From a plasmid, in assembly GCF_056712565.1 (NCBI RefSeq), contig NZ_JBWXXM010000005.1: a stretch of DNA of 8,328 bases. One strand, given 5' to 3'. The translations under genes were made by a program, and so were the position numbers. How positions within the stretch are numbered: the stretch's first letter is position 1; each line of letters opens with the position of its first letter. Below are positions 1-7,790 of the stretch, piece by piece. The notes below the pieces were generated by a model that saw only the letters and a list, made by a program, of their open reading frames with translations, was not told where the DNA came from and searched no databases.

Positions 1-486
1 ACCAAGAGGCACACCAACAATAAAACTAAACATTAATGCCACAATTTTTGCCACACCTACATCGACCGCACTTTTCTCCAGCGTGATAAACAAAGGTCGC
101 CAGTTACCAGTTTCTATTGCATTTTTAAAATCAGAACCAACATCATATAGAAAAGATACTCGACTGGTGATTTTAAGCGACTTTGATATCTTCGTTAAAT
201 TCTTAGATAACTCATCATAATTAACAGACTCTAACGCATTAAAAATAGCATCCCGATCAACCTTACTGAATTTCTTATCCAGTACATTCTTATACTTTTC
301 AAATGCTGCCAGAGCTTCATCAACACCTTGAATTTTCTTTCCTTTAGACTTTTCCGCTAAATCCTGAGCAATTTTTGCGTATTTTTCTCCATATTGTTCG
401 GTTATATATTGATAAAATCCAACCATAGTATCAACAGCATCTTTTATCTGGCTCTTTTCAAGAGCATCCTGAGCTTCTTTTAATTT
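1..486 (-). CDS. cka: Pore-forming (channel) domain segment of the colicin gene, open to the window start but out of frame with the upstream part; partial at window edge
   Basis: Reverse-complement translation in the frame whose codons occupy (3,2,1),(6,5,4)... is stop-free from 498 down to 1: [166 protein letters not shown]. This matches the colicin E1/Ia/K/5/10 channel domain as I recall it (not searched). That frame has a stop at 499..501, so it cannot join the upstream ORF without a 1-nt correction. Confidence 0.85.
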
Positions 487-1556
487 CTGCTCTGCCTCTT
501 AACCTCAGCGGCCTTACCATCCCTGAAACTAACAGCATTCTTAAGTTCATTTTCAACTGCGGAGTACTCAGCCTGCTTAGCTTCAAGCTGACGCTGTAGT
601 TTTTTCTGAACGTCACGCCATCCCGGAAATCCGGTGACCTTCACGTCAACACTCTTCTGAGCGTTTTCAAGCTCTCCTGCAACTCTGGAAACAGTAGCTT
701 GCTTACTCTGTACATCACTTTCAGCCTTCGCCAGTTCAGCTTTCGCCTCAGCTAAACGCTTCTCTGCTTCCGCCACCGCCTGTTTCTCTTCATTAAGAGT
801 TTCATGTTCAGCGACCTCTGCATTTTCACGAGCCTTTTCTTCAGCTTCCTTCTGTTTATTCACATCACCAATTTTACTTTGCAATGTATTTTTATAAGAA
901 TTAAGTTTGCTAATATCTGCATCAAGCTGATTTGATTTTTTTTGCAACTCATCAACATCCCTCTCAAGATCAGTGATACCATGATAAGAATGATGCTTGA
1001 ATACTTTTTTCATCTCCTCGATTTTCTTCTGTTTTTCACTAATCTGTGTAGCAATTTTATTCTTCTGCTTTTGTTTTTCATTAATTACATTACCCACCAC
1101 CTTCGAACTCTTATCCATATCACTGACCTGAGCATTCGTTGGTGCAGTATTAACTGAAGCAGTGTTATTGTTGTTATTTCCTGAGCTTTCTGCAAAAAGT
1201 GATGGCATATCACTAATTAAAGAATTAAGAACTCTGGAGACCCCTCCAAATGGATTATCAACCAGAGTTGAATTATCTTCTGTCATAACAATACCATTCA
1301 TCACCGGAAGGCCATCATTATTAATGACAACATCACCCCACGGAGTCAGATATGACTCACCGGTTTTCATCACAGTTGATGTAGAACCAGATGAATTTGA
1401 ATTTCCCTGACCACCATTATTACCATGCCCAGAGCCACCACCCCAGTGAACCCCACTATTACTATTATTATTTCCACCTTGCTGATTCAGATTCGCCCCT
1501 GTTCCCCCCATAGACTCACCAGCAGTTGGTCCATATCCACTTAGTTCTTTAGCCAT
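480..1556 (-). CDS. cka: Colicin, N-terminal translocation and central coiled-coil/receptor-binding part (358 codons), ending at a premature stop caused by a frameshift
   Basis: ORF track 480..1556 (-). Gly/Asn/Ser-rich N-terminus followed by [36 protein letters not shown]...[13 protein letters not shown], which closely resembles my recollection of the colicin A Tol-dependent translocation domain ([38 protein letters not shown]...RVLNSLV). A long K/E/A-rich coiled-coil follows. SD-like AGAGGA lies 7 nt upstream of the ATG (minus strand, + coords 1563..1568). Assignment to colicin K specifically is circumstantial: total length would be about 548 codons if the frameshift were repaired, and the immunity protein is 96 aa. 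Confidence 0.92.
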
Positions 1557-1631: not shown

Positions 1632-1796
1632 TAAAAACCTACTACTCAGCATTGTCCATGTCAAGAGCATGGATTTTCATTTTTGCAATAAGGATCACAC
1701 TATGGGGAGGCAGGCATTGAGAACGTCGAAACAGAACACCGGAGCAAATCAGGATGAGATATAAAACTGTTGGATCATGAAAAAACGGAGAACGAT

Positions 1797-2087
1797 GTGA
1801 GCAAATCACCCCGCCATAAACTGAACAAAACAGACAAACGACTTCTCGACACCCTTGTTGCTGCCGGATATGAGCATGACAAAGCCCGTGACCTCATCCA
1901 GAAACAGGTTTACACGCTGACACTGGCTGATCAGCGTCATGTGGTCAGTGAAATCAGTAATGGTGTGAATCCCACCCAGGCTTACTCGGCGGTATACCAG
2001 GCAAGACGCATTCGCCTCGCCCGTAAATATCTGAACGGTAAAAAGGTTATGGAAGAAACCGGGGAAAATACGCCCCCATCAGCGTAA
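1797..2087 (+). CDS. Hypothetical small basic protein (96 aa from GTG 1797; 105 aa if TTG 1770 is used)
   Basis: ORF track 1770..2087 (+). There is no in-frame ATG near the 5' end; GTG at 1797 is preceded by GGAG (1788..1791) at good spacing. The product is hydrophilic and basic (VSKSPRHKLNKTDKRLLDTLVAAGYEHDKARDLI...). I do not recognise a family and it could be non-coding. Confidence 0.25.
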   Translation: MSKSPRHKLNKTDKRLLDTLVAAGYEHDKARDLIQKQVYTLTLADQRHVVSEISNGVNPTQAYSAVYQARRIRLARKYLNGKKVMEETGENTPPSA

Positions 2088-2357
2088 GGATTTCTTTTGC
2101 CGCTCCAGAGACTCCAGTTTTTTACGCAAATCCTCTCTTTTTTGGGCATCTCTGGTGCCAGCCAGCTCTGCTCTCAACTCATCGATCTGAAGTTGTATCT
2201 TCAGTCTGTTACTGAACATTTTCTGTCTGGCATTAACATCCGCAACAATGCCGTTTTTTGTCTTCTCGGCCTTTTGTTGAAAAACATTGCTGTCCGCATG
2301 ACTGGCAACCGAAGCAGAAAGAACACTAAAAAGCAGGACTGGCACACATTTTTTCAC
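2079..2357 (-). CDS. Small secreted/periplasmic protein with Sec signal peptide (92 aa, GTG start); candidate entry-exclusion or envelope protein
   Basis: ORF track 2079..2357 (-). N-terminus MKKCVPVLLFSVLSASVASHA/DSNVF has the n-, h- and c-regions of a signal peptide with an A-x-A-type cleavage site. The ~71-aa mature part is highly charged and helical. GTG start with AGGA about 9 nt upstream. The opposite-strand ORF 2097..2402 looks like antisense noise. Confidence 0.45.
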   Translation of the reverse strand: MKKCVPVLLFSVLSASVASHADSNVFQQKAEKTKNGIVADVNARQKMFSNRLKIQLQIDELRAELAGTRDAQKREDLRKKLESLERQKKSLR

Positions 2358-2478
2358 GGGATTATTCCTGACTCATTGACCATCAAATCACATTGGGAGT
2401 AAACCGACGTATGATAAGAGATACTCTTCGGAGATATAACTCCCTGAGTATCAAGATTAAAAACGCAAGGAGATGTTT

Positions 2479-2901
2479 ATGAGATCTGCCGCTGCCAGGC
2501 TGCTTCTGATACCTCTGATAACAGCAACAATAGCTCTTACAGGATGCACACCAAAGACCAGCCTGGAACGACATACCCGGCATTATGTTTATGCTTCAGA
2601 TGATGGATTTGATCCTAACTTCTACACCCAGAAAGCAGACACCATACGTATGATGCTCCCGTTCTTTCAGCAGTTCCGGGATATGGGGATGAAAGACAAA
2701 GCAGCCGGAGTATCAGCAGAAACGGCACAGCAACGTGTAAAAGAATTCCACTCAGAAAAATTTTTTCACTCACTCCGGAGCACAACAGCCTTTGCTGGCA
2801 GAAAATACACAAACAGCGATATGCCTTCGCCGAAAAAAATGAAACTAATGGCAGACACCATTTCTGCGGTTTATCTCGATGGATACGAGGGCAGACAGTA
2901 A
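2479..2901 (+). CDS. Lipoprotein (140 aa), possible entry-exclusion-type protein of ColE1-like plasmids
   Basis: ORF track 2473..2901; I prefer ATG 2479 because the SD AAGGA (2467..2471) is 7 nt upstream. N-terminus MRSAAARLLLIPLITATIALTGC is a signal peptide ending in the lipobox L-T-G-C. The position between colicin promoter and mob genes is where ColE1 carries exc genes as I remember it; homology was not verified. Confidence 0.65.
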   Translation: MRSAAARLLLIPLITATIALTGCTPKTSLERHTRHYVYASDDGFDPNFYTQKADTIRMMLPFFQQFRDMGMKDKAAGVSAETAQQRVKEFHSEKFFHSLRSTTAFAGRKYTNSDMPSPKKMKLMADTISAVYLDGYEGRQ

Positions 2902-3274
2902 GGGATTTACCATAATCCCTTAATTGTACGCACCGCTGAAATGCGTTCAGCGCGATCACGGCTGCTGACAGGTAAAAATGGCAACAAACCACCCGAAAAG
3001 CTGCCGCGATCGCACCTGATAAATTTTAACCGTATGCATAGCTATTCAGCCATGTGAATAACGCTGGTTTTGCCTGCGTAAACCTCATGACACTGTTTTT
3101 TTTCCATCTTTTCAGTTGATGACATACGCAGACATCGCGGGATGAGGCTGAGGAATGAGCGCGATCTGGCAAAGAGGCAAAACACAGCAACAAAAACGAC
3201 ACGCCAGAATCGCGCCCGGATGCGTTTTTAACGCGTTCCGGTACCATCTGGCAACCTCCCGGAACAACTCACCG

Positions 3275-4873
3275 TCACATCCCTATTGACGGGCCACGCC
3301 ATACCCGTGCTTCCCGTTCCTGCTCTTCATGCCAGGACCGCGCACGCTCCCGTTCCAGGCGTGCCTGCCTTTCCTGTTCATCCCTTATCTGCTGTTCGTG
3401 ATAAATAACCGACTCAAGTGGTCCACCTGCCCGGCTAATCTCTGCACCTGCTGACTCAAGTCGTCGCACTGTTCCCTCAGTTGCCCGTTCTCCTGTCGTG
3501 TCAGCTCGAACATATGCTGCAAATCCGTGAAGGCGCTCTCCCAGTCTTTCAGCCGCTGCGTATAGTCCTGCTGCAATTGCTCTAAGGCGTTCAGTAAGTG
3601 CATTTCCAGCTCTGTCATACTCACTTACTCCCTGACCAGTCTTACTGCGTTCTTCTTCTCCACCGTCCAGTTGTTTTCCCCCTTCACCCCGGACGGCAAC
3701 ACCAGAAATTTCCCGTTCCTGCCCTCGTGATACGTCACACCCCATGTTTTTTCCCGGAGTTTCGCCAGCGTCTCTTCCTGGTCCCTGATAGCCAGGATGT
3801 TCGCCGCAATCCGGCTTTCCTGCCACTGAATCAGCCCCCATGACGCCAGAAAAATCCCGCCCGTGACGCAAAGCGCCGTCAGCGACGGGTACAGTATCCG
3901 CCCTTTGACCAGCTTCCAGAGCAGCTCTTCCTGCCGCCGGGCCAGTTCGTTCTCTGTGGCGCTGAACTGCGCGTTCACGGCACTGTTCAGCGTCTCCAGT
4001 TGTTCTTTCACCGCTGCTGTGTGTGCGCTGATAGCGTCTCTGATTTTCTGCCCGTTTAAGTTCAGTTCCCTGTCTACAGACGCTTCGAGCTTCCTGAACT
4101 CGCTGTTCAGCATGTTCTCTGTAGAGACGGCACGCTCTTTCAGTTTCTTCTCGAAGTCTGTCCCCATTTGTAAAAGATTGCTCATACAGCGCCCCTTTCA
4201 GCCTGAGATTACGCCCACCCTCCGGGTCGGCGATACTGATACTGCTCCTGGTTGTCCTCACAACCTCAAAACCTGCCGCTGTAAGCGCCTCAGTGACATC
4301 CTGACGCGTTTTTAGCGCTCCGGCATGGTAAAGAGCCTCCAGTCCCCTCGTAATCGCTTCTGCGGCCTCCTGTTTCGCTTTCGGCAGATTATTCGGGGTG
4401 ACAAGTGTCCGCCTGTTCTCCGGTGCGTTCGGGTCGTGCAGCCCGTAATGGTGATTCACCAGTGTCTGCCAGGCATTGATTCGCGGACGGTCCGCTCGGT
4501 CGTAATAGGGCTGGAGCCGTTTTCCGCTCGCCAGCTCCATATTCGGGATGACAAAATTCAGCTCAAGACGCCCCTTGTCCTGGTGCTCCACCCACAGGAT
4601 GCTGTACTGATTTTTTTCAAGACCGGGCATCAGTACCCGCTCAAAGCTCTCCATCACCCTTTCACGCTCTCCCGGTGGCAGGGTCTGCTCTGCAAAAGAC
4701 AGAACCCCCGAGGTGTATTTTTTCGCAAACGGCGTGGCATCGATGAGTTCCCGCACCTCTTCGGGAGCACCCCGCAGAACTCTCGCCCCTTCCCGGTTAC
4801 GCTCCCGGCCCAGCAGGTAATCAACCGGACCACTGCCACCGCCTTTTCCCCTGGCATGAAACTTAACTATCAT
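3275..4873 (-). CDS. mbeA: Mobilization relaxase MbeA (ColE1-type, MOB HEN family)
   Basis: ORF track 3275..4900 (-). From the internal Met it reads MIVKFHARGKGGGSGPVDYLLGRERNREGA...ILWVEHQDKGRLELNFVIPNMEL...QPYYDRADRPRINAWQ, matching ColE1 MbeA as I recall it. The ATG at 4873..4871 overlaps the mbeC stop in the usual coupled arrangement. The compositionally odd C-terminal half fits mbeB and mbeD being encoded in other frames. Confidence 0.92.
   Translation of the reverse strand: MIVKFHARGKGGGSGPVDYLLGRERNREGARVLRGAPEEVRELIDATPFAKKYTSGVLSFAEQTLPPGERERVMESFERVLMPGLEKNQYSILWVEHQDKGRLELNFVIPNMELASGKRLQPYYDRADRPRINAWQTLVNHHYGLHDPNAPENRRTLVTPNNLPKAKQEAAEAITRGLEALYHAGALKTRQDVTEALTAAGFEVVRTTRSSISIADPEGGRNLRLKGALYEQSFTNGDRLREETERACRLYREHAEQRVQEARSVCRQGTELKRAENQRRYQRTHSSGERTTGDAEQCRERAVQRHRERTGPAAGRAALEAGQRADTVPVADGALRHGRDFSGVMGADSVAGKPDCGEHPGYQGPGRDAGETPGKNMGCDVSRGQEREISGVAVRGEGGKQLDGGEEERSKTGQGVSEYDRAGNALTERLRAIAAGLYAAAERLGERLHGFAAYVRADTTGERATEGTVRRLESAGAEISRAGGPLESVIYHEQQIRDEQERQARLERERARSWHEEQEREARVWRGPSIGM
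3385..3618 (-). CDS. mbeD: Mobilization protein MbeD, nested within the 3' part of mbeA in another frame
   Basis: ORF track 3385..3624 (-), product M(S)MTELEMHLLNALEQLQQDYTQRLKDWESAFTDLQHMFELTRQENGQLREQCDDLSQQVQRLAGQVDHLSRLF. ATG at 3618 with GGGAG upstream; an alternative GTG at 3624 abuts the mbeB stop. Confidence 0.75.
   Translation of the reverse strand: MTELEMHLLNALEQLQQDYTQRLKDWESAFTDLQHMFELTRQENGQLREQCDDLSQQVQRLAGQVDHLSRLFITNSR
3625..4185 (-). CDS. mbeB: Mobilization protein MbeB, nested within mbeA in another frame
   Basis: ORF track 3625..4185 (-), product MSNLLQMGTDFEKKLKERAVSTENMLNSEFRKLEASVDREL... with a hydrophobic segment (LYPSLTALCVTGGIFLASWGLI). SD-like AAAGGGG upstream of the ATG. 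The stop abuts the mbeD start. Confidence 0.8.
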   Translation of the reverse strand: MSNLLQMGTDFEKKLKERAVSTENMLNSEFRKLEASVDRELNLNGQKIRDAISAHTAAVKEQLETLNSAVNAQFSATENELARRQEELLWKLVKGRILYPSLTALCVTGGIFLASWGLIQWQESRIAANILAIRDQEETLAKLREKTWGVTYHEGRNGKFLVLPSGVKGENNWTVEKKNAVRLVRE

Positions 4874-5210
4874 CCCGTTCTCCCTGTTTACGGACCTCAT
4901 CCCTCAGCTCACTCAGTTCACGTCCGATGGCCATCAGTGCAGCCACCACATGAACCCGGTCATGCCCCGACCACTGTCCGCTGTTTATCTTCCGGGCTAT
5001 CTGATTCAGGTTATTGCCGACCGAAGCGAACTGGCGCAACAGCGGCGGTGCCAGTGTCGGAAGACCTGACGTTTTCGATGGCGGTGCCCCCAGGCAGACC
5101 TTACGCATCCATGACGCAAGTTGTTTTCCCTCACAACGTGCCAGCAGCCGCGCATGTTCCTCATCCGTGACCCGTATCGTGAGCATCCTTTCGCGTTTCA
5201 CCGGTATCAT
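4863..5210 (-). CDS. mbeC: Mobilization accessory protein MbeC (relaxosome component)
   Basis: ORF track 4863..5363 (-). The conserved part MLTIRVTDEEHARLLARCEGKQLASWMRKVCLG...LAPPLLRQFASVGNNLNQIARKINSG...HVVAALMAIGRELSELR matches ColE1 MbeC/MobC as I recall it. Start chosen at ATG 5210 (GGAGG 7 nt upstream); ATG 5186 is an alternative. The first 52 codons of the track ORF are treated as spurious. Confidence 0.85.
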   Translation of the reverse strand: MIPVKRERMLTIRVTDEEHARLLARCEGKQLASWMRKVCLGAPPSKTSGLPTLAPPLLRQFASVGNNLNQIARKINSGQWSGHDRVHVVAALMAIGRELSELRDEVRKQGERDDS

Positions 5211-5253
5211 TAAAAACCTCCGACAGACTCCCCACACATGGAGAAACAGAACT

Positions 5254-5445
5254 GTGACTAAACAGGAAAAAACCGCCCTTAACATGGCCCGCTTCATCAG
5301 AAGCCAGACGCTGACCCTGCTGGAAAAACTGAATGAACTGGACGCCGACGACCAGGCTGACATCTGCGAAGCGCTTCACGACCACGCTGACGAGCTTTAC
5401 CGCAGCTGCCTCGCACGCTTCGGAGATGACGGTGAAAACCTCTGA
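5254..5445 (+). CDS. rop: Rop/Rom RNA one modulator protein (63 aa, GTG start)
   Basis: VTKQEKTALNMARFIRSQTLTLLEKLNELDADDQADICEALHDHADELYRSCLARFGDDGENL is near-identical to ColE1/pMB1 Rop as I recall it. GTG start at 5254 with GGAG about 10 nt upstream. The ORF-track entry 5014..5445 is an in-frame upstream extension with no support. Confidence 0.93.
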   Translation: MTKQEKTALNMARFIRSQTLTLLEKLNELDADDQADICEALHDHADELYRSCLARFGDDGENL

Positions 5446-5535
5446 CACATGCAGCTCCCGGAGACGGTCACAGCTGGCCTGTGAGCGGATGCCGGGAGCA
5501 GACAAGCCCGTCAGGGCGCGTCAGCGGGTTTTAGC

Positions 5536-5600
5536 GGGTGTCGGGGCGCAGCCATGACCCAGTCACGTAGCGATAGCGGAGTGTATACTGGCTTAATCAT
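5536..5600. other. bom / oriT region (basis of mobility) with relaxase nic region
   Basis: Sequence gggtgtcggggcgcagccatgacccagtcacgtagcgatagcggagtgtatactggcttaa corresponds to the pMB1/ColE1 bom region as I recall it, including the ...TATACTGGCTTAA... nic region. It sits between rop and the origin as in pBR322. Confidence 0.6.
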
Positions 5601-6253
5601 TTGGCATCAGTGAGGATTGTATGAAAAGTGCACCATGCCGGGTGTGAAATGCCGCACAGATGCGTAAGGAGAAAATGCTCGTCCAGGCGCTTTTCCGCTT
5701 CCTCGCTCACTGACTCGCTCCGCTCGGTCGTTCGGCTGCGGCGAGCGGTATCAGCTCACTCAAAGACGGTAATGCGGTTATCCACAGAATCAGGGGATAA
5801 CACCAAAAGAAACATGTGAGCAAAAAACAAGAACCCGGAAAAGGCCACGCAGCTGGCGTTTTTCCATAGGCTCCGCCCCCCTGACGAGCATCACAAAAAC
5901 CGACGCTCAAGTCAGAGGTGGCGAAACCCGACAGGACTTAAAGATACCAGGCGTTTCCCCCTGGTGGCTCCCTCGTGCGCTCTCCTGTTCCGACCCTGCC
6001 GCTTACCGGATACCTGTCCGCCTTTCTCCCTTTGGGAAGCGTGGCGCTTTCTCATAGCTCACGCTGTTGGTATCTCAGTTCGGTGTAGGTCGTTCGCTCC
6101 AAGCTGGGCTGTGTGCACGAACCCCCCGTTCAGCCCGACCGCTGCGCCTTATCCGGTAACTATCGTCTTGAGTCCAACCCGGTAAGACACGACTTAACGC
6201 CACTGGCAGCAGCCATTGGTAACTGGATAGTGGATTTAGATACGCAGAACTCT

Positions 6254-6459: not shown

Positions 6460-6500
6460 TGGATTTGCCCCTATATTTCCAGACACCTGTTATCACTTAA
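6460..6500. repeat. IS2 terminal inverted repeat (IRR)
   Basis: Imperfect inverted repeat partner of 7749..7790; shared core CCAGACA...ATATCACTTA. Confidence 0.8.
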
Positions 6501-7376
6501 CCCATTACTGGCTTGCTGCCGTAGATATTCCCGTGGCGAGCGATAACCCAGTGCACTATGCGGATGCCATTCGTTATAATGCTCGAACGCCTCTGCAAGG
6601 TTCTTTGCTGCCGTTAACCCGTCTGGTTTGGGCATGACACTGATGTAGTCACGCTTTATCGTTTTCACGAAGCTCTCTGCTATGCCGTTACTCTCCGGAC
6701 TCCGCACCGCCGTGCTCTTCGGTTCAAGCCCCAACATCCGGGCAAACTGCCGTGTTTCATTAGCCCGGTAGCATGAACCATTATCCGTCAGCCACTCTAC
6801 TGGAGACGCCGGAAGCTCGTTGCCGAAGCGGCGTTCCACCGCTCCCAGCATGACGTCCTGTACTGTTTCACTGTTGAAGCCGCCCGTAGTGACCGCCCAG
6901 TGCAGTGCCTCACGGTCACAGCAGTCCAGCGCGAACGTGACTCGCAGTTTTTCTCCGTTATCACAGCGGAACTCGAACCCGTCAGAGCACCATCGCTGAT
7001 TACTTTCTTTCACAGCCACTCTGCCTGTATGTGCCCGTTTCGATGGCGGTACAGCAGGTTTTCGCTCAAGCAACAGCGCATTCTGGCGCATGATCCGGTA
7101 AACACGTTTGGCATTGATCGCAGGCATACCATCAAGTTCTGCCTGTCTGCGAAGCAGCGCCCATACCCGACGATAACCATACGTGGGCAGCTCTCCGATA
7201 ACATGGTGTATACGGAGAAGCACATCCGTATCATCAGTGTGACGACTGCGGCGGCCATCCATCCAGTCATCGGTTCGTCTGAGAATGACGTGCAACTGCG
7301 CACGCGACACCCGGAGACAACGGCTGACTAAGCTTACTCCCCATCCCCGGGCAATAAGGGCGCGTGCGCTATCCAC
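6471..7376 (-). CDS. insD: IS2 transposase OrfB (InsD), normally expressed as an OrfAB fusion by -1 frameshifting
   Basis: ORF track 6471..7376 (-) 301 aa, (M/V)[33 protein letters not shown]...[12 protein letters not shown]... with a DDE-type integrase core (...[37 protein letters not shown]...). The first codon is GTG and overlaps the end of insC. Confidence 0.95.
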
Positions 7377-7699
7377 TTTTTTGCCCGTCCATATTCAACG
7401 GCTTCTTTGAGGAGTTCATTTTCCATCGTTTTCTTGCCGAGCAGGCGCTGGAGTTCTTTAATCTGCTTCATGGCGGCAGCAAGTTCAGAGGCAGGAACAA
7501 CCTGTTCTCCGGCGGCGACAGCAGTAAGACTTCCTTCCTGGTATTGCTTACGCCAGAGAAATAACTGGCTGGCTGCTACACCATGTTGCCGGGCAACGAG
7601 GGAGACCGTCATCCCTGGTTCAAAGCTCTGCTGAACAATTGCGATCTTTTCCTGTGTGGTACGCCGTCTGCGTTTCTCCGGTCCTAAGACATCAATCAT
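7334..7699 (-). CDS. insC: IS2 OrfA (InsC), helix-turn-helix regulator / N-terminal part of the transposase
   Basis: From ATG at 7699: [58 protein letters not shown]...[26 protein letters not shown]. The 15 extra N-terminal codons in the track ORF 7334..7744 are rejected. Confidence 0.93.
7377..7383 (-). other. IS2 programmed -1 ribosomal frameshift heptamer (A AAA AAG) at the insC/insD overlap
   Basis: Minus-strand sequence ggcA AAA AAG tgg is in the OrfA zero frame. A -1 slip reads AAA AAA GTG GAT AGC = KKVDS..., continuing into InsD. This is a known IS3-family mechanism. Confidence 0.7.
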
Positions 7700-7748
7700 C
7701 TGCTCTCCAATGACTAGTCTAAAAACTAGTATTAAGACTATCACTTAA

Positions 7749-7790
7749 ATAAGTGATATTGGTTGTCTGGAGATTCAGGGGGCCAGTCTA
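7749..7790. repeat. IS2 terminal inverted repeat (IRL)
   Basis: Reverse complement from 7790 reads TAGACTGGCCCCCTGAATCTCCAGACAACCAATATCACTTA... The lysis-gene reading frame terminates inside this repeat at TGA 7775..7777. Confidence 0.8.

Follow-up and report, generated by a model that had tools for sequence, protein, structure and literature searches.

The window analyzed here is an 8,328-nt stretch of plasmid DNA (contig NZ_JBWXXM010000005.1 of assembly GCF_056712565.1) and represents a variant of pColK-K235, with which it shares 99.6% identity. The two plasmids differ in the position of IS2 and in a frameshift in cka; the mob region is the same. All of the mob genes lie on the minus strand. 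The relaxase gene mbeA occupies positions 3275..4873 and encodes a MOB-HEN relaxase of 532 aa. Wholly within mbeA, in the +1 frame, lie mbeB (3625..4185, 186 aa) and, 3' of it, mbeD (3385..3618, 77 aa). The gene mbeC (4863..5186, 107 aa) encodes a MobC/NikA-like relaxosome accessory protein, and its last 11 nt overlap the start of mbeA (4863-4873). These assignments were made from the open reading frame (ORF) list, the translations and Pfam matches, together with the RefSeq annotation of an identical plasmid, where mbeA is named 'plasmid mobilization relaxase MbeA' and the nested genes are assigned to the MbeB family and, as a mobilization/exclusion protein, to the MbeD family. The ORF list and translations confirmed the coordinates given in an initial annotation of this DNA and placed mbeA, mbeB and mbeD on the minus strand. 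A terminator-like hairpin followed by a T-run, identified by consensus match only, is located on the minus strand at 3198..3216, approximately 60 nt past the end of mbeA, and possibly marks the end of the mob operon. At the stringency of the tool used, a promoter scan identified no sigma-70-like promoter inside 3100-5700, including the regions ahead of mbeB and mbeD.

The mbeA reading frame is open from 3275 to 4900, with a canonical ATG at 4873 (protein start MIVKFH...). MbeA matched the Pfam Relaxase family PF03432 (E 7e-6, 26.8 bits versus a cut-off of 24.6), and comparison of 13 homologues revealed that residues Y19, H97, E104 and N106 are invariant. Y19 is the catalytic tyrosine of motif I, within VDYLLG, while H97, E104 and N106, in WVEHQDKGRLELNF, form an H-E-N motif III and not the usual three-histidine motif. 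The name 'HEN' for this type of motif III presumably goes back to Varsaki 2003 and Francia 2004. That motif III is atypical in MbeA has been stated previously (PMC3447787), and the same paper cites published activity for ColE1 MbeA as a verified relaxase (Varsaki 2003). Related plasmids were typed as MOBP (PLSDB/MOB-suite).

The overlap of mbeA with its nested genes comprises 801 nt (nt 689-1489 of 1599). It thus takes up 50% of the gene, less than the two-thirds given in the initial annotation. We compared 17 related plasmids with nucleotide identities down to about 50%, and for 13 of them the full mbeA gene was available; relatives in the plasmid collection span six bacterial orders. In 17/17 plasmids the mbeA frame contained no stops and the nested frame contained exactly its two genuine stops. 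All indels were multiples of 3, and none of the 17 plasmids had the disruptive stops or out-of-frame indels in the nested frame that the initial annotation had named as evidence against overlapping genes. The +1 frame contained 7-13 stops in the 687 nt of mbeA outside the overlap versus exactly 2 in the 705-804 nt of overlap (13 lineages), and the +2 frame contained 17-27 stops in the overlap (13 plasmids with the full gene). The last result led to the rejection of triple coding. Three proteins read from the same DNA, as first proposed, is an overstatement: mbeB and mbeD do not use different frames but lie in series in a single frame, +1 relative to mbeA, and each base serves at most two frames. 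Two plus-strand ORFs opposite mbeA (3863-4315, 150 aa; 4325-5170, 281 aa) were taken as spurious because a relative with 83% identity retains only 93 aa of the 281-aa ORF.

MbeB matched the Pfam family MbeB_N (PF04837) over the full length of the model (1-52 of 52, E 7e-24). Its start site (4183..4198, minus strand) consists of a Shine-Dalgarno-like AAAGGGG, a 6-nt spacer and the ATG, and lies within the MbeA motif NLRLKGALYEQSF, whose K-G and Y-E codons supply the Shine-Dalgarno element and the ATG, respectively. This embedding was retained in 17/17 close and 5/5 distant homologues, in which the motif takes the general form N(I/L)RLKGxxYE(Q/R)xF. The start codons of mbeA and mbeB were offset by 688 nt in our plasmid, in 13/13 close relatives for which both could be located, and in three of five distant plasmids (Klebsiella ColKP3-type, Pseudoalteromonas and Glaesserella). 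Nested MbeB_N ORFs in the +1 frame were also identified in Neisseria, 713 nt past the annotated start of a split relaxase, and in Psychrobacter, at an offset of 712.

MbeD matched the Pfam family MbeD_MobD (PF04899) with an E value of 1.5e-34 (1-70 of 70), and entry exclusion has been reported for mbeD of ColE1 (Yamada 1995, as cited in PMC2831885). The junction between the nested genes (3616..3633, minus strand) reads AGGGAG (Shine-Dalgarno-like), the mbeB stop TAA (3625-3627), GTGAGT, and the mbeD start ATG (3616-3618). The initial annotation described the mbeB stop as abutting the mbeD start; this is true of a GTG at 3624, which directly adjoins the stop, but not of the ATG, which is separated from it by the 6 nt of GTGAGT. 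In 14/14 homologues in which the junction was read, a purine-rich Shine-Dalgarno-like element was present just 5' of the mbeB stop and the gap after it was 3 or 6 nt long, and the mbeB-mbeD gap was a multiple of 3 in all 17 plasmids. The ribosome-binding site of mbeD overlies the mbeB stop, which suggests that translation of the two genes is coupled. The same arrangement could also mean that mbeB and mbeD amount to a single gene, with read-through of the stop yielding an MbeB-MbeD fusion beside the separate proteins, as the two share a frame and are parted at each locus examined by one stop and 1-2 codons (23 codons in L016). We consider this extremely improbable: the mbeB stop varies freely between TAA, TGA and TAG and lacks a conserved context for read-through, relatives conserve a Shine-Dalgarno element and an ATG or GTG at which initiation, independent or coupled, could take place, and mbeB occurs without mbeD in some relatives (Glaesserella, Neisseria). 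Furthermore, keeping mbeA open forces mbeB and mbeD into the same frame, and their shared frame therefore needs no separate explanation.

Selection on the two frames was examined by codon position, a check proposed in the initial annotation. Diversity at the three codon positions was concentrated at the third position in non-overlapped mbeA (0.14/0.09/0.41) and was flattened across the overlap, both in mbeB (0.37/0.36/0.41) and in mbeD (0.23/0.28/0.30). Wei-Zhang-type estimates (NN/SN and NN/NS) for the entire overlap gave an omega of about 1 for MbeA and were set aside, since setting different codon positions against each other makes them confounded. They were replaced by rates for each class of change, calculated by region and scaled to an external benchmark, for which the N-terminal part of mbeA provided synonymous sites from the same pairs of plasmids. 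In the first region (R1, 4018..4185, minus strand; MbeB 1-56 / MbeA 230-285), changes affecting only MbeA occurred at 0.30 of the neutral rate, those affecting only MbeB at 0.41 and those affecting both at 0.20, values which, like those for the other two regions, are based on uncorrected p-distances and presume no recombination between segments, although ColE1-type plasmids are mosaic. Both frames are constrained in R1, and mean pairwise identity was 0.56-0.75 in the mbeA frame and 0.47-0.63 in the mbeB frame. In the second region (R2, 3628..4017, minus strand; MbeB 57-186 / MbeA 286-415), MbeB was moderately constrained and MbeA nearly unconstrained (MbeA-only 0.85, MbeB-only 0.50, both 0.62), with pairwise identity in the mbeA frame of 0.07-0.39. 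In the third region (R3, 3433..3618, minus strand; MbeD 1-62 / MbeA 419-480), both proteins were constrained, MbeD more so (MbeA-only 0.55, MbeD-only 0.32, both 0.28). One pair of plasmids (L009/L014) gave values of about 1.0 for all change classes. The overlap is thus a dual-coding region with purifying selection in both frames, except at MbeA 286-415, where amino-acid constraint was not detectable in the mbeA frame (0.85 of neutral) and all that is preserved is that the frame stays open.

These rates bear on whether mbeB and mbeD could be accidental open frames generated by the Arg/Glu/Gly/Ala-rich composition of MbeA. When the MbeA protein was held fixed and its synonymous codons were shuffled, 4-60% of shuffles left the +1 frame with two or fewer stops (P 0.04-0.6). 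Openness of the +1 frame is therefore not particularly improbable given the MbeA sequence, and by itself is no proof of nested genes. An accidental origin is nevertheless barely conceivable in view of the matches of both products to curated families, the conservation of the ATG and Shine-Dalgarno element, with their offset unchanged, between bacterial orders, the numerous +1 stops in the non-overlapped part of mbeA, the entry exclusion attributed to mbeD in the literature cited above, and the rate of mbeA-silent changes that alter only the nested protein, which was 0.32-0.50 of neutral over the three regions. The nested arrangement is real, ancient and under selection.

The converse analysis, in which the synonymous codons of mbeB and mbeD were shuffled, gave an average of 4-8 stops in the mbeA frame, and a stop-free mbeA frame was improbable in each of 8 lineages (P <= 0.0075, mostly approximately 0.001). 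The mbeA frame is actively kept open across the overlap. The protein that it encodes there is skewed in composition, as initially annotated, with an R+E+G+A content of 51-55% versus 38% in the N-terminal 229 residues and a hydrophobic content of 14-24% versus 28%. The accompanying claim, that this skew reflects selection on the other frames, is supported for the central MbeA 286-415 only and fails at the two ends of the overlap, where MbeA is itself constrained (0.30 and 0.55). In the AlphaFold model of MbeA, which was of low confidence overall (mean pLDDT 50; alignment of 13 sequences), residues 323-417 were modelled as coil with a pLDDT of 26-30, hinting at a disordered linker, and a helix at residues 490-525 had the highest pLDDT (73-87). 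Between positions 420 and 476 of MbeA, 17 residues are invariant. Past mbeD, mbeA continues as an Arg/Glu-rich 3' tail of 36 codons and a stop (3275..3384, minus strand) that ends in ...GPSIGM, and a GPS(L/M)G-like C-terminal end was found in most homologues.

These data also allowed us to weigh the view that only mbeB and mbeD matter in the overlap, such that the C-terminal half of MbeA would be a functionless passenger and the active relaxase would consist of the N-terminal ~285 residues. The near-neutral rate and low pairwise identity of MbeA 286-415, the skewed composition with few hydrophobic residues and the low-pLDDT coil are all as this view would have it. However, a passenger would not account for a frame that is stop-free in 17/17 lineages when shuffled sequences acquire several stops, for indels that are all multiples of 3, for the invariant residues of MbeA 419-480 and an MbeA-only rate there of 0.55 versus 0.85 next door in the same plasmid pairs, or for the recurrent C-terminal end, and we regard it as very unlikely.

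Judged from sequence, the locus is very probably the standard mob operon of a ColE1-superfamily (colicin K) plasmid, with mbeB and mbeD translated from within mbeA. One minus-strand transcript, presumably shared, would carry mbeC and then mbeA, and ribosomes would start at two internal +1 sites in mbeA, at mbeB first and at mbeD directly after the MbeB stop. The start of mbeB is hard-wired into the relaxase, its ATG being supplied by Tyr-Glu and its ribosome-binding site by Lys-Gly codons. MbeB, which has a hydrophobic segment in addition to its conserved N-terminal domain, would act as an accessory protein of the relaxosome, and MbeD as a short coiled-coil protein with the reported entry-exclusion function. 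For MbeA, we infer that residues ~420-525 have a role for which the frame must remain open through a linker that is poorly constrained and probably disordered, and the sequence of which is probably set largely by MbeB. Tentatively, and with a probability just short of even, MbeA may be a three-part protein, in which the relaxase domain extends ~55 codons into the overlap and is followed by a linker of ~130 residues and a C-terminal helical module (~420-525). The linker may be an evolutionary by-product of MbeB and itself nearly neutral, and the C-terminal module may be conserved and co-encoded with MbeD. If so, the linker would be kept stop-free only to join the two ends, the coupling protein or secretion system of a helper plasmid would recognise the C-terminal module, and the MbeB_N 'domain' would be conserved partly through overprinting on a conserved relaxase segment.

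The nested arrangement of mbeB and mbeD is already known; nested mob genes of ColE1-type plasmids have been described since the 1980s. The initial annotation had recognised these as ColE1-family mob genes of known out-of-frame nesting, in agreement with RefSeq and the literature (PMC5935869). Their presence carries little weight as a discovery, because they are classic in ColE1-type mob regions and are annotated automatically. As far as could be found, the region-by-region view of the overlap has no published account, and it elaborates a known system; it provides a clean small example of constraint shared by two frames and points to the MbeA C-terminus as a candidate functional module. There is also a practical consequence. 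The overlaps often cause mbeA to be left out of gene tables or labelled as a pseudogene, as documented for 487 plasmids (bioRxiv 10.1101/2023.11.08.566193), and it was absent from the PLSDB gene tables examined for related plasmids; this loss can cause mobilisable plasmids to be misjudged.

A layout identical to ours, with two mob ORFs entirely within mobA, has been described previously, and mbeE, which is absent here, is also absent in the ColK/ColA subgroup (PMC5935869). The mob region of ColE1/ColK/ColA (ColE1-superfamily MOB-HEN, equivalent to MOBP5) has the same gene set and order as our plasmid, with mbeB and mbeD wholly inside mbeA and a slight overlap of mbeC with the mbeA start. Its Pfam families (MbeB_N, MbeD_MobD, MobC and Relaxase) and HEN motif are likewise all present. 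In mobA-mobB of RSF1010/R1162 (MOBQ), a small relaxosome accessory gene also lies in another frame inside the relaxase gene; there, the relaxase family is not known to be related in sequence, one gene is nested versus two here, and the MobA C-terminus is a primase. Overprinted pairs in small phage and viral genomes resemble our locus in that two frames are coding, codon-position variability is flattened, and one product is skewed and less constrained. In contrast to such pairs generally, the overlap described here belongs to a plasmid operon, and relative constraint switches along its length, with no frame dominant throughout.

The window encodes four mob genes on the minus strand: mbeC (4863-5186; 107 aa, MobC/NikA Pfam match), mbeA (3275-4873; 532 aa, Relaxase Pfam match), mbeB (3625-4185; 186 aa, MbeB_N Pfam match, E 7e-24) and mbeD (3385-3618; 77 aa, MbeD_MobD Pfam match, E 1.5e-34). 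The mbeA coordinates were counted from the canonical ATG (MIVKFH...); the open frame extends to 4900. On a plasmid 100% identical here, RefSeq names the products 'plasmid mobilization relaxase MbeA', 'MbeB family mobilization protein' and 'MbeD family mobilization/exclusion protein'. The ORF list and translation reproduced exactly the coordinates of the nested genes in the initial annotation. Its description of three proteins in alternate frames held for the nesting but not for the number of frames, as mbeB and mbeD lie in series in one frame, +1 relative to mbeA. Each base of the overlap is thus read in two coding frames, never three, and the third same-strand frame contains 24 stops. The overlap spans 801 nt (mbeA nt 689-1489 of 1599) and so covers half of mbeA, not the two-thirds first proposed. 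The mbeB/mbeD junction reads AGGGAG-TAA-GTGAGT-ATG; a GTG directly abuts the mbeB stop, in line with the abutting stop and start described previously, but the annotated mbeD ATG is 6 nt away. The odd composition noted for MbeA was borne out, with R+E+G+A making up 51-55% of residues over the overlap compared with 38% in residues 1-229, and hydrophobic residues 14% over the mbeB part compared with 28% in residues 1-229. MbeA H97/E104/N106 were invariant among homologues.

A third, short overlap in the operon was absent from the initial annotation: the mbeA ATG sits within the last codons of mbeC (GATGATAGTTAA), giving an 11-nt overlap (4863-4873). Two plus-strand ORFs antisense to mbeA/mbeC (3863-4315, 150 aa; 4325-5170, 281 aa) are probably by-products of composition; the 281-aa ORF was not conserved, being 93 aa in an 83%-identical relative.

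Conservation was analyzed in 17 related plasmid loci from Escherichia, Salmonella, Klebsiella, Enterobacter, Citrobacter, Edwardsiella, Erwinia and Aeromonas, with overlap nucleotide identity to the window ranging from 100% down to about 50%. Both frames were intact in all 17 loci, and mbeB and mbeD consistently occupied the +1 frame; none of the nested frames was interrupted by a stop or a frame-breaking indel, which would have been the counter-evidence named beforehand. The mbeB-mbeD gap was divisible by three throughout (3, 6 or 69 nt), and the mbeB ATG lay 688 nt after the mbeA ATG in 13/13 loci with both starts located. MbeB length varied from 139 to 186 aa through many indels, every one of which preserved both frames.

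The 687 nt of mbeA outside the overlap provided an internal control. Across 13 lineages, the +1 frame contained 7-13 stops in this control region, whereas in the 705-804 nt overlap its only stops were the two that genuinely end mbeB and mbeD. No stop was detected in the mbeA frame across the overlap in any of the 13 lineages. When codons were shuffled synonymously with the MbeB and MbeD proteins fixed, the mbeA frame acquired a mean of 4-8 stops and was rarely stop-free (P from <0.0005 to 0.0075 in eight diverged lineages, each taken separately), so openness of the mbeA frame is actively maintained. The opposite shuffle, with the MbeA protein fixed, was a weak test: 4-60% of trials left the +1 frame with no more than two stops. 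That the nested genes are real has to be judged from other evidence.

The codon-position analysis proposed in the initial annotation gave the result expected for dual coding. Mean pairwise diversity at positions 1/2/3 was 0.14/0.09/0.41 in non-overlapped mbeA, the usual single-frame signature, and essentially flat in the overlap (nested-frame positions; 0.37/0.36/0.41 over mbeB and 0.23/0.28/0.30 over mbeD). Six phylogenetically separate close pairs were also used to sort substitutions by what they change in either frame, with codon alignments guided by the nested proteins and uncorrected p-distances. The synonymous rate of the mbeA N-terminus (0.35, from the five pairs having it; dN/dS about 0.12) served as the neutral benchmark for scaling; this benchmark assumes a common history of both mbeA parts within each pair and may fail in mosaic plasmids, and for one pair all classes came out at about 1.0. 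Over MbeB 1-56 (MbeA 230-285), MbeA-only, nested-only and both-changing substitutions occurred at 0.30, 0.41 and 0.20 of the synonymous rate; the corresponding values were 0.85, 0.50 and 0.62 over MbeB 57-186 (MbeA 286-415) and 0.55, 0.32 and 0.28 over MbeD 1-62 (MbeA 419-480). Constraint acts on both frames at either end of the overlap; in the middle, the MbeA amino-acid sequence is nearly free and constraint acts on MbeB only. In the MbeA alignment, conservation was high to about residue 283 and almost nil at 286-415, and 17 residues were invariant within 420-476. A low-confidence AlphaFold model (mean pLDDT 50) placed residues 323-417 in coil (pLDDT 26-30) flanked by helices.

The mbeB start is built from conserved MbeA codons. 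Within the MbeA motif N(I/L)RLKGxxYE(Q/R)xF, the ATG is formed from TAT-GAG (Tyr-Glu) and a Shine-Dalgarno-like AAAGGRG from AAR-GGN (Lys-Gly), an arrangement identical in all 17 close relatives. A Shine-Dalgarno-like AGGGAG/AGGAG for mbeD lay directly 5' of the mbeB stop in all junctions read (14 of the 17 relatives), which suggests translational coupling from mbeB to mbeD. A promoter scan identified no sigma-70-like promoter in 3100-5700, and a terminator-like hairpin follows mbeA; this layout fits translation of all mob genes from one operon transcript.

The same mbeB start arrangement occurs in more distant plasmids, from Klebsiella (ColKP3 type), Pseudoalteromonas, Psychrobacter, Neisseria gonorrhoeae and Glaesserella parasuis. 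Their relaxases share just 41-59% identity with MbeA of the window, and their nested ORFs match MbeB_N by Pfam (E 1e-7 to 2e-22). The overlap is thus ancient, at least for mbeB. An MbeD-like ORF with a Pfam match lay downstream in Klebsiella, and MTELE- or coiled-coil MbeD-like ORFs without a Pfam match were present in Pseudoalteromonas, Psychrobacter and Hydrogenophilus; among the distant relatives examined, none followed mbeB in Glaesserella and Neisseria. In the N. gonorrhoeae cryptic plasmid, the relaxase homologue (1789-3139) is split over two frames (1789-2418, then an ORF at 2273-3139) with the MbeB_N gene (2502-3089) in the third, so that long ORFs occupy all three strand frames around 2500-2420. 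Hydrogenophilus thermoluteolus pTH1, with a relaxase only 36% identical to MbeA, carries a 66-aa coiled-coil ORF (3912-4112) in the +1 frame near the relaxase 3' end; it starts with MTELERLL, an MbeD-like N-terminus, and has no Pfam MbeD match, and no recognisable MbeB ORF was found in this plasmid.

The window comprises all or nearly all of a colicin K plasmid of the ColE1 family and is 99.6% identical end to end to pColK-K235 (NC_006881.1) except for the IS2 copy. Beyond the mob region it encodes RNAI, rop, colicin K immunity and lysis genes and an Exc2 lipoprotein gene. The cka gene for colicin K (480-1556, minus strand) continues across the window ends, as it would if the window were a whole circular plasmid. 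Compared with pColK-K235, cka has a 1-nt deletion (AAA to AA) at about 501, and the frameshifted product ends at 358 aa instead of 548, without the C-terminal pore-forming domain. Either cka is a genuine pseudogene here or the short homopolymer was misread in sequencing. IS2 (6460-7790) is flanked by the replication region and the lysis gene, whereas the pColK-K235 copy adjoins the cka promoter side. The different site, and an identity between the IS2 copies (97.7%) lower than that of the backbone (99.6%), suggest an independent insertion.

MbeA is described as an experimentally verified relaxase with an atypical motif III in PMC3447787, citing Varsaki 2003, and PMC2831885 cites Yamada 1995 for entry exclusion by mbeD. 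A preprint (bioRxiv 10.1101/2023.11.08.566193) describes mis-calling of the MbeA relaxase as a pseudogene in 487 ColE1-like plasmids. In PLSDB, mbeA was missing from the gene tables of every related plasmid (L001-L015), leaving locus-tag gaps; RefSeq lists it. The present data correct the geometry (two frames, 50% of mbeA, 6-nt spacer), show quantitatively that both frames are maintained, and reveal a switch of constraint between frames along the overlap. This switch leaves room for a modestly new idea, in which MbeB dictates the sequence of a linker in MbeA and this linker tethers a C-terminus that may act as a functional module. The nested mbeB/mbeD arrangement itself is real, already known and was correctly identified as ColE1-type in the initial annotation; the original characterisation of this type of mob region is reportedly that of Boyd et al. 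in 1989. The mob region of the window belongs to the ColK/ColA subgroup of the ColE1 superfamily, which lacks mbeE. RSF1010 mobA/mobB provides an analogous case of an accessory gene nested in a relaxase gene.
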